Positions 2,746-5,395 of a DNA stretch of 6,564 nucleotides are shown one piece after another (position 1 is the first letter of the stretch; each line of letters opens with the position of its first letter). Under the pieces are notes generated by a model, which saw nothing but the letters and a program-made list of their open reading frames with translations, did not search any database and had not been told where the DNA came from. The stretch lies in the NCBI RefSeq assembly GCF_003334385.1, contig NZ_QOWN01000076.1; one strand, 5' to 3'. A program made the translations under genes and the position numbers. This DNA is from Escherichia coli. GTDB lineage: Bacteria > Pseudomonadota > Gammaproteobacteria > Enterobacterales > Enterobacteriaceae.

Positions 2746-2952
2746 TTACGGACGGGACTGTGCAATACGCGCCTGCAGCCAGGCTTCCACTTCACTTTTC
2801 AGCCAGCGGGAGCTGCGCTCCATTTTGATGGGGGCAGGAAAGCCCCCATCTTTGATGAGTTTGTAAAACCACTTATCGGTTAAGCCGGTAAGTTGAGTGA
2901 TAAACGCCATGTCGACCATCTGGTCATCCATCAGCGAAACAGGGGTAGCCAT
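2746..2952 (-). CDS. alpA: AlpA-family (phage/integrative-element) transcriptional regulator / excisionase-like HTH protein, 68 aa
   Basis: The C-terminal 68 aa of ORF 2746..3186 read MATPVSLMDDQMVDMAFITQLTGLTDKWFYKLIKDGGFPAPIKMERSSRWLKSEVEAWLQARIAQSRP. The ATG at 2950..2952 (complement) is preceded by GGAGG (complement of about 2960..2964). The small size, helix-turn-helix-like core and the motif W-x-x-S-E-V-E-A-W-L resemble the E. coli AlpA C-terminus (W-I-E-A-E-I-D-E-W-L) as I recall it. The 78-codon upstream extension is Pro/Arg/Ser-rich and not protein-like. Confidence 0.75.
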   Translation of the reverse strand: MATPVSLMDDQMVDMAFITQLTGLTDKWFYKLIKDGGFPAPIKMERSSRWLKSEVEAWLQARIAQSRP

Positions 2953-3238
2953 GAGAATGTTCCTCCGGATGTTGTTAAACCAGCCGGTGTGGTCATGAAA
3001 ACAGCGCGCCACCTTCACTGGCATAACAACCGGGGAGAAACGTAAAAAATAATCGGGAATGTGGCTGTCCGGAGATAAACGGGGGGGATTGCGATGGCAG
3101 AGCCGTAGCGGAATCCCGGGTGGTTGTTGCGAAAAGATGCTTCCGCACGCACGCGCGATAAAGGAGGGAGGACTTTCGTGAGACAAGGGGAAAACTAGCG
3201 TTCTGATAATTGCAGAGTTGTTTTCGGAGGTGGTTACA

Positions 3239-3358
3239 GTGAGTCAGCCCGTTCCTGGCGAGGAGGAGACTGATATCACCGATGGGATAAGGCTGTCTGA
3301 TTGGTATTATAAATATAAGAAGTCATCAGAGAGTAACGTAAAGGATTTGCCAGAGTAA
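3239..3358 (+). CDS. Candidate small ORF (39 aa, MSQPVPGEEETDITDGIRLSDWYYKYKKSSESNVKDLPE), divergent from alpA; speculative
   Basis: GTG at 3239 with GGAGG (3226..3230) 8 nt upstream, in-frame stop TAA at 3356..3358. It is below the ORF-track size cutoff. No homology is recognised, and a short ORF next to a good SD can arise by chance. Confidence 0.2.
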   Translation: MSQPVPGEEETDITDGIRLSDWYYKYKKSSESNVKDLPE

Positions 3359-3399
3359 GCTAAGAGAGTAAATCTCTCCGGTAACAGAGCGCTGTGAAT

Positions 3400-3431
3400 C
3401 GTTCATGTATCAGAGTGCAAATACATGAACG
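3400..3431. repeat. 11-bp inverted repeat (CGTTCATGTAT / ATACATGAACG) with 10-nt spacer; candidate operator or RNA hairpin
   Basis: Read directly: 3400..3410 and 3421..3431 are exact reverse complements. There is no adjacent T-run on either strand. The arm sequence ATACATGAAC recurs at 4156..4165. Confidence 0.8.
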
Positions 3432-4155
3432 CTGATGCGTAAAATCAGCAGTGACACGCCAGCTCCCCCTGTGCCCATTCCTGTATAAGACATGAACTGA
3501 GCGTATTAATGCTCCTGCTCTGAGACTGAGCCGGTGAGTGAGGGGCTGAGAAATCCCTCTTGACACAGCTCTAAACCAGAAATACTTCCCCGGTTGTTGC
3601 GGTGCGTCCGGATCCCCGATAACGGAACACTAAGGCTGTATTGCGGGACACCGGGTAAGTGGCAGCCTGTAATGTGTTCTGTCAACGCCAGAAAAAATGA
3701 TTTTTCACACGCGTTATAGACTCACTCCTGTGGACCTGGAAGCCCGTAACTCTGCGGTTGCCCACCGACTGACGGAACTGACCGCAAACTTTACGATCGT
3801 GTTCCTGCTTCCTTCTGGTCACCTGAACTTTTAGCCAGCGCTACGATAAGTCCGGTGTTATCTGCACCGGAGGACCGGGAACATTAAGCGGTATAGCGAC
3901 AACAAAGAATTCGAAATCAAAAGGGAATGGTGCCGGAGGCGTGGGCGGTAATAGGCTGATTTTCAGGTATTACCGGCTTACAACGTGTGGTTGATATTGA
4001 GGGGCTGTGAGTTTCGCGTATTTGTCAGAAACCCAGATGAGTTTTCCTTTATGGGACGAAATAAGGCAGCGGCAATACCTGGAAAAATTTAATATGGTAT
4101 GAAGGAGAACCTGTCGGTTACGCTTAATATACACGGTACACTGTCAGCTCAGGGG

Positions 4156-4165
4156 ATACATGAAC
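4156..4165. repeat. Additional direct copy of the 10-mer ATACATGAAC (same as 3421..3430), just downstream of the zinc-ribbon gene stop
   Basis: Exact 10-mer match read from the sequence. A related 8-mer ACATGAAC is at 3490..3497. Chance recurrence of a given 10-mer in 6.5 kb is unlikely but not negligible. Confidence 0.5.
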
Positions 4166-4172
4166 CGTTATC

Positions 4173-4373: not shown

Positions 4374-4545
4374 CACTCCCTCCTCACAGCCTTACCCGTA
4401 ACCGATTTTTTACATTAAAAAAACAACGCTGAAAATTCAACCGTCAGTCCGGAGACGACCGTTCGGGTTATCACAGAGTGCCTGAGACAGTGTCCTGCCG
4501 GAGGTCACCTCAGGGGCTCTGCGCATTTTTTACGACGTGGTTATT

Positions 4546-4562
4546 CCGTATGAACCATACGG
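4546..4562. promoter_or_regulatory. 17-bp perfect palindrome CCGTATGAACCATACGG overlapping the Shine-Dalgarno of the YagK/YfjJ-like gene
   Basis: Read directly: 4546..4552 (CCGTATG) and 4556..4562 (CATACGG) are reverse complements with a 3-nt centre. The right arm overlaps GGAG (4561..4564), which is the SD for the ATG at 4573. It could be a dimeric-regulator site or an RNA hairpin occluding the RBS. Confidence 0.4.
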
Positions 4563-4572
4563 AGATTTAACC

Positions 4573-5142
4573 ATGACCTACAAATACAACCCCTTCTGGC
4601 AGCAACGTATTCGTGAGACGGTGCGGCACGCACTGAATGTTCATCCCCGCCTGACGGCATTGCGGGTTGACCTGCGTCTCCCGGATGTACCGGCAGCAAC
4701 GGACGCAGCTGTGATATCCCGCTTCATCAATGCCCTGAAAGCCCGAATCGACGCTTACCAGAAACGTAAGCATCGGGAAGGTAAACGCGTGCATCCCACA
4801 ACCCTGCATTACGTCTGGGCCCGGGAGTTTGGGGAGTGCAAAGGTAAAAAACACTATCACCTGATGCTGCTGGTCAACCGGGATACCTGGTGTCGTGCCG
4901 GTGATTACCGCGCTCCGGAGTCTCTGGCCGGGATGATTAAACAGGCGTGGTGCAGTGCCCTGGGAGTGGATGTCGGGTGCCATGCCACGCTGGTGCATTT
5001 TCCGGCCTGGCCGGCGGTGTGGCTGGCGCGTAATGATGACACCGGCTTTCAGCAAGTGCTGGAACGTGCTGACTATCTGGCGAAGGAGCATACCAAAGCT
5101 CACTGCACCGGTGAGCGCAATTTTGGCTGTAGCCGGAGTTGA
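4573..5142 (+). CDS. YagK/YfjJ-family (inovirus Gp2-like) protein with HUH-like and YxxK-like motifs, 189 aa
   Basis: ORF 4537..5142 begins with GTG; the ATG at 4573 has GGAG (4561..4564) 8 nt upstream, so 4573 is preferred. The N-terminus YKYNPFWQQRIRETVRHALNVHPRLTALRVDLRLP matches my recollection of the YagK/YfjJ family. HYH followed by LMLLVN (HYH at 4852..4860) is an HUH-type motif, and YLAK lies near the C-terminus. The long antisense ORF 4567..5436 is rejected as GC-driven. Confidence 0.7.
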   Translation: MTYKYNPFWQQRIRETVRHALNVHPRLTALRVDLRLPDVPAATDAAVISRFINALKARIDAYQKRKHREGKRVHPTTLHYVWAREFGECKGKKHYHLMLLVNRDTWCRAGDYRAPESLAGMIKQAWCSALGVDVGCHATLVHFPAWPAVWLARNDDTGFQQVLERADYLAKEHTKAHCTGERNFGCSRS

Positions 5143-5219
5143 GCACGACTGGCGCGCCAATATCCGGCAAACCAAAAGTATGGGTTGTTGTCTGGCGGCA
5201 ACGATGTATCCACTCGCCC

Positions 5220-5243
5220 ACTGACTGTTTTTTACGTCAGTGT
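5220..5243 (+). other. Possible hairpin (CACTGAC / GTCAGTG, 7-bp stem, 10-nt T-rich loop) in the intergenic region after the YagK-like gene
   Basis: Read directly. The T-run is inside the loop rather than after the stem, so terminator function is uncertain. Confidence 0.25.
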
Positions 5244-5395
5244 TCCATTGTGTGACAACCACAGTGCTGTAACAGCAACCAGCCTGCTTTACCCAAACTC
5301 CAGTCCAGATTTTAACTGAACCGCCATTCACACCCTGACCACGCTGCCCGTACCGGGACGGCTGTTGCCTGCGTGTCGTCTGGCGGCTGAGGTAT

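Follow-up and report, generated by a model that had tools for sequence, protein, structure and literature searches.

Why should a gene in an Escherichia coli genomic island carry its ribosome-binding site within a perfect palindrome? The gene lies in a stretch of 6,564 nucleotides (contig NZ_QOWN01000076.1; hereafter the window) that was analysed at its full length. RefSeq places its start at the same ATG (4573–4575) that we use, and annotates the 189-amino-acid product as an 'inovirus Gp2 family protein'. For this product the evidence supports a HUH (Rep-like) endonuclease fold, Rep_ORF2-G2P-like, with invariant HUH and YxxK residues; a search of NCBIfam gave no match and a sequence search of the PDB gave nothing useful. 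The host element is a large integrase/AlpA-type island, with a small AlpA-like helix–turn–helix (HTH) gene on the minus strand of the window (2746–2955), and alpA follows the gene in orthologues. Two roles for the palindrome had been put forward in a sequence-only reading: an mRNA hairpin sequestering the Shine–Dalgarno sequence, or a symmetric DNA site for a dimeric repressor. Our analysis points to the first, and we consider it probable that a cis-acting stem-loop in the 5′ untranslated region, both arms of which would be present in the mRNA, hides the Shine–Dalgarno sequence and the AUG and represses translation of the yagK-like gene.

The palindrome is where the sequence-only reading had placed it, with CCGTATG (4546–4552) and CATACGG (4556–4562) on either side of AAC (4553–4555); it overlaps GGAG (4561–4564) and ends 10 nt (4563–4572) before the ATG. 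The repeat itself therefore stands, but its arms had been given as 7 bp and the perfect arms are 8 bp long (TCCGTATG/CATACGGA, 4545–4552/4556–4563). That reading had also passed over an outer helix that buries the AUG and a terminator-like hairpin upstream (Table 1).

Table 1. Coordinates of the gene and of the features in its leader (positions in the window)
Feature	Coordinates	Strand	Remarks
Sigma-70 promoter-like site, TTTACA-16-GAAAAT	4409..4436	+	Consensus scan, 9/12 match
Terminator-like stem-loop	4474..4521	+	−27.5 kcal/mol; T6 4 nt further on
U-rich single-stranded tract, UUUUUUACGA	4526..4535	+	Between the two hairpins; includes motif box 1 TTTTTTAC
Bipartite motif, TTTTTTAC-N15-TATGAAC	4526..4555	+	Overlaps loop and left arm (3′ end)
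Outer helix, left arm, CGUGGUUA	4536..4543	+	Partner 4568–4575; RNAalifold consensus of 34 leaders
Inner helix, left arm (anti-Shine–Dalgarno), UUCCGUAUG	4544..4552	+	4545–4552 Watson–Crick; U4544·G4564 wobble
Apical loop, AAC	4553..4555	+	Second common allele AACGAAAC, 8 nt
Inner helix, right arm, CAUACGGAG	4556..4564	+	Contains the entire Shine–Dalgarno GGAG (4561–4564)
Outer helix, right arm, UAACCAUG	4568..4575	+	Contains the start codon AUG (4573–4575)
Putatively regulated gene	4573..5142	+	189 aa, YagK/YfjJ family, HUH endonuclease fold (supported)

Folded as RNA, the 49 nt from 4532 to 4580 reach −19.5 kcal/mol, compared with −7.4 ± 2.2 kcal/mol for shuffled sequences (z = −5.45; 0 of 200 shuffles), and the predicted fold places both GGAG and AUG within helices, in a stem of 17 pairs in total. 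The predicted probability of being unpaired is 0.03 for the Shine–Dalgarno sequence and 0.01–0.05 for the AUG. In a putative leader of 178 nt the Shine–Dalgarno sequence is predicted to be 97% paired, and more than 95% paired throughout 25–60 °C. RNA thermometers (ROSE, fourU) likewise have a hairpin that pairs the Shine–Dalgarno sequence, but the stem in the window is perfect and stable, and we rejected a thermometer on the predicted probability that the Shine–Dalgarno sequence is unpaired (0.025, 0.032 and 0.052 at 30, 42 and 60 °C, respectively). The palindrome was also rejected as an intrinsic terminator, as the stem is followed by ACCUACAAAU on the plus strand and GUCGUAAAAAA on the minus strand and not by a U-run. 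Rfam covariance models gave no match at E ≤ 1 to the entire window on either strand.

By itself, the palindrome is not beyond chance: dinucleotide shuffles of the window predict 0.65 ± 0.93 perfect hairpins with 8-bp arms and loops of 3–8 nt, and three distinct ones are observed. Its conservation says otherwise. All 16 arm columns are invariant among 54 distinct E. coli-type leaders, whereas 76–90% of the columns at 4441–4524 vary, which argues that the palindrome is not a product of chance. G4564, which completes the right arm, is likewise constant throughout the E. coli-type leaders. Identical arms are found in about 6,500 copies in about 3,600 E. coli genomes; many of these copies are recent and nearly identical, but the proteins of E. 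coli copies diverge by up to 18% while the arms never vary. To judge from these comparisons, the arms are under purifying selection. In an E. coli paralogue (81% identity), the corresponding position holds a shorter hairpin, UCUGUG-AGU-CACGGA.

The loop is 3 or 8 nt long with the arms unchanged; in complete E. coli genomes, 5,727 places have the exact arms around AAC and 854 have them around AACGAAAC. Because this common 5-nt indel shifts the frame, we rejected an amino-terminal extension of the protein from GTG-4537 (a 201-amino-acid open reading frame, P0004 in some records). A leader peptide from ATG-4550 (MNHTEI*) was rejected as well: neither its frame nor its length is conserved (some orthologues have it in the reading frame of the gene, others have an early stop), its own AUG is paired and it has no Shine–Dalgarno sequence. 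Together, the broken GTG-4537 frame and the unconserved ATG-4550 frame indicate that the leader region is non-coding. Beyond the invariant arms, position 4544 is U in 31 of 34 leaders (U·G), C in one (C–G) and A in two (unpaired). Substitutions in the outer helix (4537 G>A, 4536 C>U and 4571 C>U) preserve pairing in the same 34 leaders; the exceptions to such pairing-preserving change are position 4541 and the two A variants at 4544. The outer helix is less certain than the inner one, as most variants have a mismatch at 4541.

Orthologues at 59–69% protein identity, from Enterobacter, Klebsiella, Salmonella, Serratia, Cedecea, Rouxiella and Pectobacterium, pair the same Shine–Dalgarno sequence with an anti-Shine–Dalgarno helix placed elsewhere (CnCCGGT/ACCGGAG), with the arms separated by 22 nt. 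Pairing of GGAG is retained in all E. coli-type leaders and in all of these orthologues, whereas the sequence of the partner and the geometry of the helix are specific to each clade. Six pairs of C-n-C-C-G-G-T/A-C-C-G-G-A-G form in 95–100% of the orthologue sequences in a MAFFT alignment that was not fitted to the structure; the A of GGAG is paired in only 10 of 19. Overall, 81% of the cells of the orthologue helix are paired, compared with at most 44% when the partners are slid. Four orthologue sequences have a double change from G–C to A–U, and U·G wobbles occur at three pairs (in 5, 2 and 1 of the 19 leaders). Some orthologues pair the full GGAG, as in CTCCGGTG/CACCGGAG and CTCCAGT/ACTGGAG, and three pairs are altered on both sides between the E. 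coli form CCG-UAUGAACCAUA-CGG and GGU-UAUGAACCAUA-ACC of leader L037.

Several qualifications apply to these comparisons. The covariation values are reached in 2–3 of 500 column shuffles, but shared descent can be enough to beat this control where no structure exists, and the covariation events are few, the G–C to A–U change having probably arisen once or twice. Watson–Crick covariation preserves the dyad symmetry of DNA equally well, and a hairpin in single-stranded DNA would give the same pattern. On the whole-hairpin energy, the plus strand is favoured in the window (−19.5 versus −15.0 kcal/mol on the minus strand) and in 11 of 14 E. coli types; the difference among orthologues is not significant (P = 0.26). 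Sequence diversity was drawn from look-ups of exact proteins, BLAST matches in E. coli and a degenerate GKKHYH..LL DNA pattern run on metagenomes; a peptide-pattern scan of one genome per species returned two contaminant contigs only, and a scan of viral contigs returned one locus.

The median predicted probability that the Shine–Dalgarno sequence is unpaired is 0.056 for E. coli-type leaders, 0.154 for orthologues and 0.35 for homologues at about 40% identity, compared with about 0.3 for shuffled leaders; sequence by sequence, however, most leaders fall only within the lowest 0–25% of shuffles. At about 40% identity the structure is mostly absent. The leaders of K-12 yfjJ and yagK (36–40% identity) are unrelated to that of the window, and K-12 yagK has its own two-tier hairpin that pairs the Shine–Dalgarno sequence. 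Sequestration by an RNA hairpin, as the sequence-only reading had proposed, is thus well supported by the pairing of GGAG across clades, by compensatory change, by wobbles that pair on the sense strand only and by predicted probabilities of 0.03–0.15, well below the value for shuffled leaders.

We therefore favour translational repression, although we infer from sequence and predicted fold that the left arm is transcribed and translation repressed, and the same holds for any mechanism of release. The anti-Shine–Dalgarno strand (UUCCG...) would pair with GGAG and the outer helix with the AUG; 30S subunits would bind rarely, and synthesis of the HUH endonuclease would be very low. The U-rich tract 5′ of the stem does not vary among E. 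coli-type leaders, recurs as a T-run with TAAC or TTAC in all orthologues and is predicted to be about 80% unpaired. It may serve as a terminator U-tract and/or as an S1 or standby site for ribosomes. From a standby site, ribosomes could exploit rare openings of the stem; alternatively, it could be the target of some activator. A search within the window for a trans-acting partner of the left arm found none. GGA motifs stand at 4451–4453, 4500–4502 and 4561–4563.

The terminator-like stem-loop upstream occurs only in the E. coli clade; group B leaders lack it, and one variant (L078) has it deleted. Its stem varies at 4479/4516 (U–A, U·G or C–G) and at 4478/4517 (G–C, G·U or A–U). Together with T6, it fits the intrinsic terminator family loosely; the consensus scan did not call it because its loop exceeds 8 nt. 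With a translational block directly behind this hairpin and the U-tract, the gene of the E. coli clade would be insulated twice, in transcription and in translation. The sole promoter-like site upstream, at 4409–4436, is a modest match to the consensus. Its −35 element is conserved as TTTACA, TTTGCA or TTGACA, and its −10 element is GAAAAT in most variants and GGGAAT in about a quarter. Use of this candidate promoter would place the transcription start near 4443, with both hairpins in the RNA. On the minus strand, the scan called no promoter-like site.

The TATGAAC that runs into the loop, overlooked in the sequence-only reading, is part of a conserved bipartite motif. The motif predates the hairpin: homologues at about 40% identity that lack the Shine–Dalgarno hairpin have TTTATTAC-N15-TATTGAAC at −49 to −55 from the ATG. 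Another copy is present at 5228–5255, upstream of the next gene, with its T-run/TTAC between the arms of a 7-bp inverted repeat (5219–5225/5236–5242), in a loop of 10 nt; a relaxed pattern of the motif has two matches in the window, compared with 0.08 expected. The conservation of TATGAAC and of the T-run exceeds what pairing needs, even in the homologues without a hairpin, which implies another constraint on part of the palindrome. The motif could be a promoter, or a site that a HUH enzyme nicks or binds.

If a promoter lies in the motif, the mRNA of the gene itself would lack the left arm, and the hairpin would give fold-back protection only: native transcripts would start in or after the right arm and be translatable, and the anti-Shine–Dalgarno sequence, situated in the promoter spacer, would be present only in read-through from outside, which it silences. 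Davis, Simons and Kleckner reportedly described such fold-back inhibition of read-through transcripts in 1985 for IS10/Tn10, where an upstream segment likewise pairs with the ribosome-binding site and transcripts from outside go untranslated. We consider this account of the window possible but unlikely. The fixed distance of the motif from the ATG in hairpin-less homologues suits a promoter with a leader of 15–25 nt, and the second copy also stands upstream of a gene. The deletion in L078 removes everything upstream of the T-run and keeps motif and hairpin, and a terminator directly upstream suits an element that shields itself from outside transcription. However, the native promoter of IS10 starts transcription inside the structure, whereas the candidate motif of the window does not match σ70: the fit was poor at each spacing tried by hand, and the consensus scan calls no promoter there. 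The −10 element would be TATGAA or TATTGA without T at −7, the A at −11 is G in L113-type leaders (TGTGAA), and TTTACG is only 14 bp from the putative −10. Furthermore, with a start about 7 nt past TATGAA, E. coli-type transcripts would begin at GGAG or within it.

Alternatively, the conserved sequence may act as DNA, with the hairpin (extruded or in single strands) and the TTTTTTAC box forming a putative binding or nicking site, ori- or oriT-like, for the HUH protein; such an element may double as an RNA regulator, as proposed for the ends of IS200/IS608. HUH enzymes act on hairpin-flanked sites, often beside their own gene, and the product here has the fold with its invariant HUH and YxxK residues. 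Box 1 of distant homologues is TATTAC, which we take to resemble the ...TATTAC end of the nonanucleotides of CRESS viruses and geminiviruses. The looped T-run/TTAC of the second copy and the surplus conservation of TATGAAC also agree with a DNA target. Against this, the right arm is the Shine–Dalgarno sequence in every clade, and its partner has been rebuilt in at least four ways that keep GGAG paired, as translational control would lead one to expect; for a nick site it would be coincidental. The boxes, but not the hairpin, persist in homologues at about 40% identity, and the wobble pairs favour the sense strand. We regard a DNA-level role as improbable, and give no greater credence to dual use, in which hairpins and boxes would be recognized and nicked as DNA and the transcribed repeat would throttle the enzyme.

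The other proposal of the sequence-only reading, a dyad operator for a dimeric repressor that blocks transcription, fares worse, and we think it very unlikely. A perfect 8 + 8 bp dyad, strictly conserved in E. coli, would suit such a site, and the AlpA-like HTH protein of the island, encoded in the window and after the gene in orthologues, would be a candidate repressor. Yet spacers of 3 and 8 bp are both frequent, across hundreds to thousands of genomes, and differ by a half-turn that a single dimer should not tolerate. The spacing of the half-sites is therefore not fixed, and symmetry is lost in relatives: the T·G positions of orthologues break the dyad while leaving the RNA pairs intact, and the arms there are far apart. 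Moreover, the site lies past the only promoter-like sequence and the terminator, and overlaps the Shine–Dalgarno sequence and not a −10 or −35 element. The AlpA of P. aeruginosa, a larger protein, binds GGGACG between −35 and −10 (PMC9371919). Antitermination of the upstream terminator by an AlpA-type protein is speculation, as nothing ties AlpA to the leader. Least likely of all is a palindrome without function, an inverted repeat that arose by chance and travels in an island that is young and has spread recently. An 8-bp hairpin in 6.5 kb is no more than chance allows, and many copies are near-identical, but the arms stay constant beside diverging proteins and a variable leader, and other genera keep the pairing with different sequences.

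Control by a leader that hides the Shine–Dalgarno sequence is of a familiar type, newly seen for this gene family. In plasmid rep leaders (R1 repA/tap, IncB and IncI-alpha repZ/repY, and pT181 with its attenuation), antisense RNAs and leader-peptide coupling are at work. As in those leaders, where an initiator is kept low by RNA structure that hides the ribosome-binding site or by a terminator just upstream, the hairpins of the window immediately precede a Rep-like gene, but we found no antisense promoter and no conserved leader open reading frame here. In the IS200 tnpA leader, a terminator acts against impinging transcription and a stem-loop in which the Shine–Dalgarno sequence is sequestered blocks 30S binding (Ellis, Trussler and Haniford 2015, PMC4513863). 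Both leaders belong to a HUH-superfamily gene of a mobile element and have a terminator-type hairpin followed by a stem-loop that buries the Shine–Dalgarno sequence, with a single-stranded tract, proposed as an S1 or standby site, beside the stem. The two are dissimilar in sequence, however, and the element here belongs to a large integrase/AlpA-type island, whereas IS200 is an insertion sequence. We rejected an IS200/IS605 element, which would have a Y1 TnpA gene and subterminal hairpins; the protein here is YagK/YfjJ and not a Y1 transposase. Additionally, no antisense RNA like art200 emerged from the promoter scan of the minus strand, and the stem is short and covers the AUG. Repression by the IS200 leader was shown experimentally, whereas that by the leader of the window is read from its sequence and predicted fold.

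YagK/YfjJ genes are core, uncharacterized parts of integrase/AlpA-type genomic islands; two-thirds of complete E. coli genomes have them, as do many other Enterobacterales and Pseudomonas. Strains that carry the gene of the window include Nissle 1917, CFT073, ATCC 25922 and O157. Should the protein be an active HUH nickase, the fact that these genes have escaped functional study would be explained by tight silencing after transcription, and mutation of the left arm would be a practical means of turning the gene on. As an RNA element, the leader is compact, strongly conserved and unannotated, and is a candidate for collections of RNA families. The bipartite motif is a testable candidate for the DNA target of the enzyme or for the promoter type of the island. 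If the reading of dual use is true, the 'YagK/YfjJ – AlpA' module would be the replication or mobilization core of CP4-type islands.

The inverted repeat upstream of the yagK-like gene lies where the sequence-only reading had placed it, as CCGTATG (4546-4552), AAC (4553-4555) and CATACGG (4556-4562), with GGAG at 4561-4564 and the ATG at 4573, which is also the RefSeq start of the 189-amino-acid 'inovirus Gp2 family protein'. In RNA, a U4544·G4564 wobble extends the inner helix, so that all of GGAG is paired. The predicted energy of RNA 4532-4580 is -19.5 kcal/mol, against a shuffle mean of -7.4 +/- 2.2 (z = -5.45; 0 of 200 shuffles); the opposite strand of the hairpin region gives -15.0 kcal/mol (z = -2.66). 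Three distinct perfect 8-bp hairpins with loops of 3-8 nt occur in the window, where dinucleotide shuffles predict 0.65 +/- 0.93; the palindrome by itself is not beyond chance, and the case for function is built on comparison. Rfam returned no family match for the leader element or elsewhere in the window.

Features of the leader and of the region 3' of the yagK-like gene
Feature	Coordinates	Strand	Detail
Sigma-70-like site	4409-4436	+	TTTACA-16-GAAAAT; predicted RNA start near 4443
Small hairpin	4443-4459	+	
Strong stem-loop	4474-4521	+	-27.5 kcal/mol; some covarying pairs; then T6 4526-4531
Bipartite motif	4526-4533 and 4549-4555	+	T-run/TTAC and TATGAAC; fixed 15-nt spacing
Outer helix	4536-4543/4568-4575		RNA fold; includes AUG
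Inverted repeat	4545-4552/4556-4563		TCCGTATG/CATACGGA; 8-bp perfect arms
Bulge	4565-4567		3 nt; between inner and outer helix
7-bp inverted repeat	5219-5242	+	CACTGAC/GTCAGTG, loop TGTTTTTTAC; just 3' of the yagK-like stop codon

Other repeats are present in the window. The longest, a perfect 17-bp repeat (TTCATCACCGATATTCA/TGAATATCGGTGATGAA, 6-nt spacer, 1787-1826), lies 60 nt past the stop of the YfjI-family gene, and a perfect 9-bp repeat (GATGGGGGC/GCCCCCATC, 2827-2850) lies within the minus-strand AlpA-like helix-turn-helix gene. Between that gene and a 67-amino-acid minus-strand ORF is about 1 kb without an annotated gene (3190-4170); an otherwise identical genome, GE3 (locus L001, 4175-5352), carries an IS3-family insertion within the matching stretch.

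The gene and its leader are present in 3,655 of 5,426 complete E. coli genomes (median, two copies). Among 54 distinct leader-plus-gene sequences from complete genomes and metagenome contigs, which encode proteins 82-100% identical to that of the window, all 16 arm columns, the Shine–Dalgarno (SD) sequence, the spacer and the T-run are invariant, whereas 64% of the third codon positions, and 76-90% of the columns of 4441-4524, are variable. Two loop alleles, AAC and AACGAAAC, occur on identical arms (5,727 and 854 places, respectively, by exact-word search). In the RNAalifold consensus of 34 leaders, pairing survives most substitutions at paired positions, namely U>C at 4544, G>A at 4537, C>U at 4536 and C>U at 4571; it is lost at 4541 in most variants, and at 4544 in two variants that have A. 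A paralogue of 81% identity, with otherwise unrelated upstream DNA, has UCUGUG-AGU-CACGGA at the equivalent position. The hairpin region is non-coding, because the 5-nt loop indel breaks an in-frame extension of the gene from GTG-4537, which is thereby ruled out. A mini-ORF (4550-4570, +; ATG AAC CAT ACG GAG ATT TAA), which begins within the stem and stops 2 nt 5' of the main ATG, was also rejected, its frame and length not being conserved; in several orthologues its ATG is in frame with the gene. Two remnant loci (L002, 3001-3045; L031, about 640-690) keep the 45-nt hairpin module, SD and ATG with most of the yagK-like ORF deleted, and the L002 module directly adjoins an IS1414 copy.

Orthologues (59-69% identity) from Enterobacter, Klebsiella, Salmonella, Serratia, Cedecea, Rouxiella, Pectobacterium and metagenomes share a conserved leader, TATTTTTTAAC-GGCnCCGGTAATGGwTATGAAC...ACCGGAGTC...ATG. 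We used a MAFFT alignment comprising 19 distinct leaders to check its structure, an SD-pairing helix (C-n-C-C-G-G-T/A-C-C-G-G-A-G) plus an inner helix. There, 81% of cells are paired, and sliding the partners by 1-3 columns lowers this to 28-44%. In the SD-pairing helix, six pairs form in 95-100% of sequences, and only 10 of the 19 leaders pair opposite the A of GGAG; a G-C to A-U double change affects one pair in four sequences, and three pairs show U·G wobbles (in five, two and one sequences). The full GGAG is paired in several orthologue leaders (CTCCGGTG/CACCGGAG, CTCCAGT/ACTGGAG and CTTCAGTAATT/AATTACTGGAG). The orthologue inner helix is the counterpart of the palindrome: three pairs are altered on both sides between GGU-UAUGAACCAUA-ACC in one of these leaders (L037) and CCG-UAUGAACCAUA-CGG in the window. 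About 6 nt (ACCCAC) that orthologues have between the inner helix and GGAG are missing from the E. coli clade, and we infer that the inner helix therefore took over SD pairing. The median predicted probability that the SD is unpaired (0.056 for the E. coli type, 0.154 for orthologues and about 0.3 after shuffling of the leader sequence 5' to the SD) agrees with this conserved pairing. The K-12 yagK leader (L023, 8950-9020, -), unrelated in sequence and preceding a protein of 39% identity, has its own two-tier hairpin, in which the SD region is paired by CCUGUA/UACAGG around an enclosed ACGGUCU/AGACCGU (-27.8 kcal/mol; P(SD unpaired) about 0).

The palindrome had been read either as an RNA hairpin that sequesters the SD or as an operator for a dimeric repressor. 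Watson–Crick covariation would equally preserve a dyad in the DNA or a hairpin in single-stranded DNA, independent compensatory events are few, and a column-shuffle control gave 2-3 of 500, a kind of control that related sequences without structure can beat. Comparison of the strands by whole-hairpin energy in the orthologues gave no significant difference (p = 0.26). Nevertheless, the wobble pairs (which on the complementary strand become A·C mismatches), the variable arm spacing and the rebuilding of GGAG pairing in at least four different ways point to sense-strand RNA acting at translation. The comparison supports the RNA hairpin, and the operator is disfavoured.

Ribosome-binding-site structures stronger than about -6 kcal/mol reportedly cut translation about tenfold per 1.4 kcal/mol (de Smit and van Duin, 1990); by this relation, strong repression would be expected from a stem of -18 to -20 kcal/mol, unless translation is helped by a standby site or a factor. 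An RNA thermometer is ruled out, because the SD is predicted to be >95% paired from 25 to 60 C. Upstream, the -35 of the sigma-70-like site is conserved among variants and its -10 only partly. The strong stem-loop, about 30 nt downstream of the predicted start, forms with its T6 a terminator-like unit found only in the E. coli clade, which may end a leader RNA or small RNA of roughly 88 nt or serve as an attenuator. In a metagenome variant (L078), this unit is deleted and the T-run and SD hairpin are retained. Between the two hairpins runs a U-rich tract that all orthologues retain and for which the predicted single-stranded share is about 80%. Three CCGGAG/ACGGAG motifs in the leader (4449-4454, 4498-4503 and 4559-4564, +), the first placing its GGA in the small hairpin's tetraloop, recall the pattern of CsrA-bound leaders. 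We propose as the most likely mechanism that the terminator-type hairpin would restrict transcription into the gene and that the SD/AUG stem-loop would stop 30S binding on transcripts that pass it. Of the analogues studied experimentally, the IS200 tnpA leader comes closest: it too precedes an HUH enzyme gene, and it combines a terminator that guards against impinging transcription with a stem-loop whose sequestration of the SD was demonstrated by mutation and toeprinting (PMC4513863).

Two conserved boxes in the leader, T-run+TTAC and T(A/G)T(T)GAA(C), separated by N15, make up a bipartite motif that is retained ahead of YagK-family genes with protein identities as low as 37%. In the palindrome, its TATGAAC covers the last part of the left arm together with the loop. 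Homologues of about 40% identity carry the motif as TTTATTAC-N15-TATTGAAC at -49 to -55 from the ATG (L046, L122, L049, L059, L138, L044, L032 and L118) and lack the SD hairpin (median P(SD unpaired), 0.35). Box 1 is TATTAC in distant homologues, and GTAATTTATTAC makes a small palindrome of its own. A relaxed pattern matches twice in the window (0.08 expected); the second copy (5228-5255, +) precedes the next, zinc-ribbon gene. The motif may act as a promoter, unusual or activator-dependent; the hairpin would then silence read-through transcripts alone, by the logic of IS10. Other candidate roles are a protein-binding site and a site that the HUH enzyme nicks or recognises: in the second copy, CACTGAC/GTCAGTG encloses TGTTTTTTAC, which puts the conserved T-run/TTAC box in a hairpin loop, a layout that resembles the stem-loops of HUH origins. 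A standard sigma-70 promoter was rejected, as the fit was poor at every spacing tried and a promoter scan made no call there.

The description of the product as nuclease-like is justified, because the protein matches YagK_YfjJ_C (4.8e-48) and REP_ORF2-G2P (3.3e-5) in Pfam, and the HUH and YxxK residues (H94-Y-H96 and Y168-x-x-K171) are invariant in 15 homologues. In orthologues, alpA and DUF7828/zinc-ribbon genes lie downstream; a Gp2-like/alpA pair has been reported as core to tmRNA-integrated Pseudomonas islands (bioRxiv 10.1101/2024.08.29.610337). The leader is a new, unannotated case of a well-known class of regulatory element, and it stands before an uncharacterised, very widespread HUH gene.
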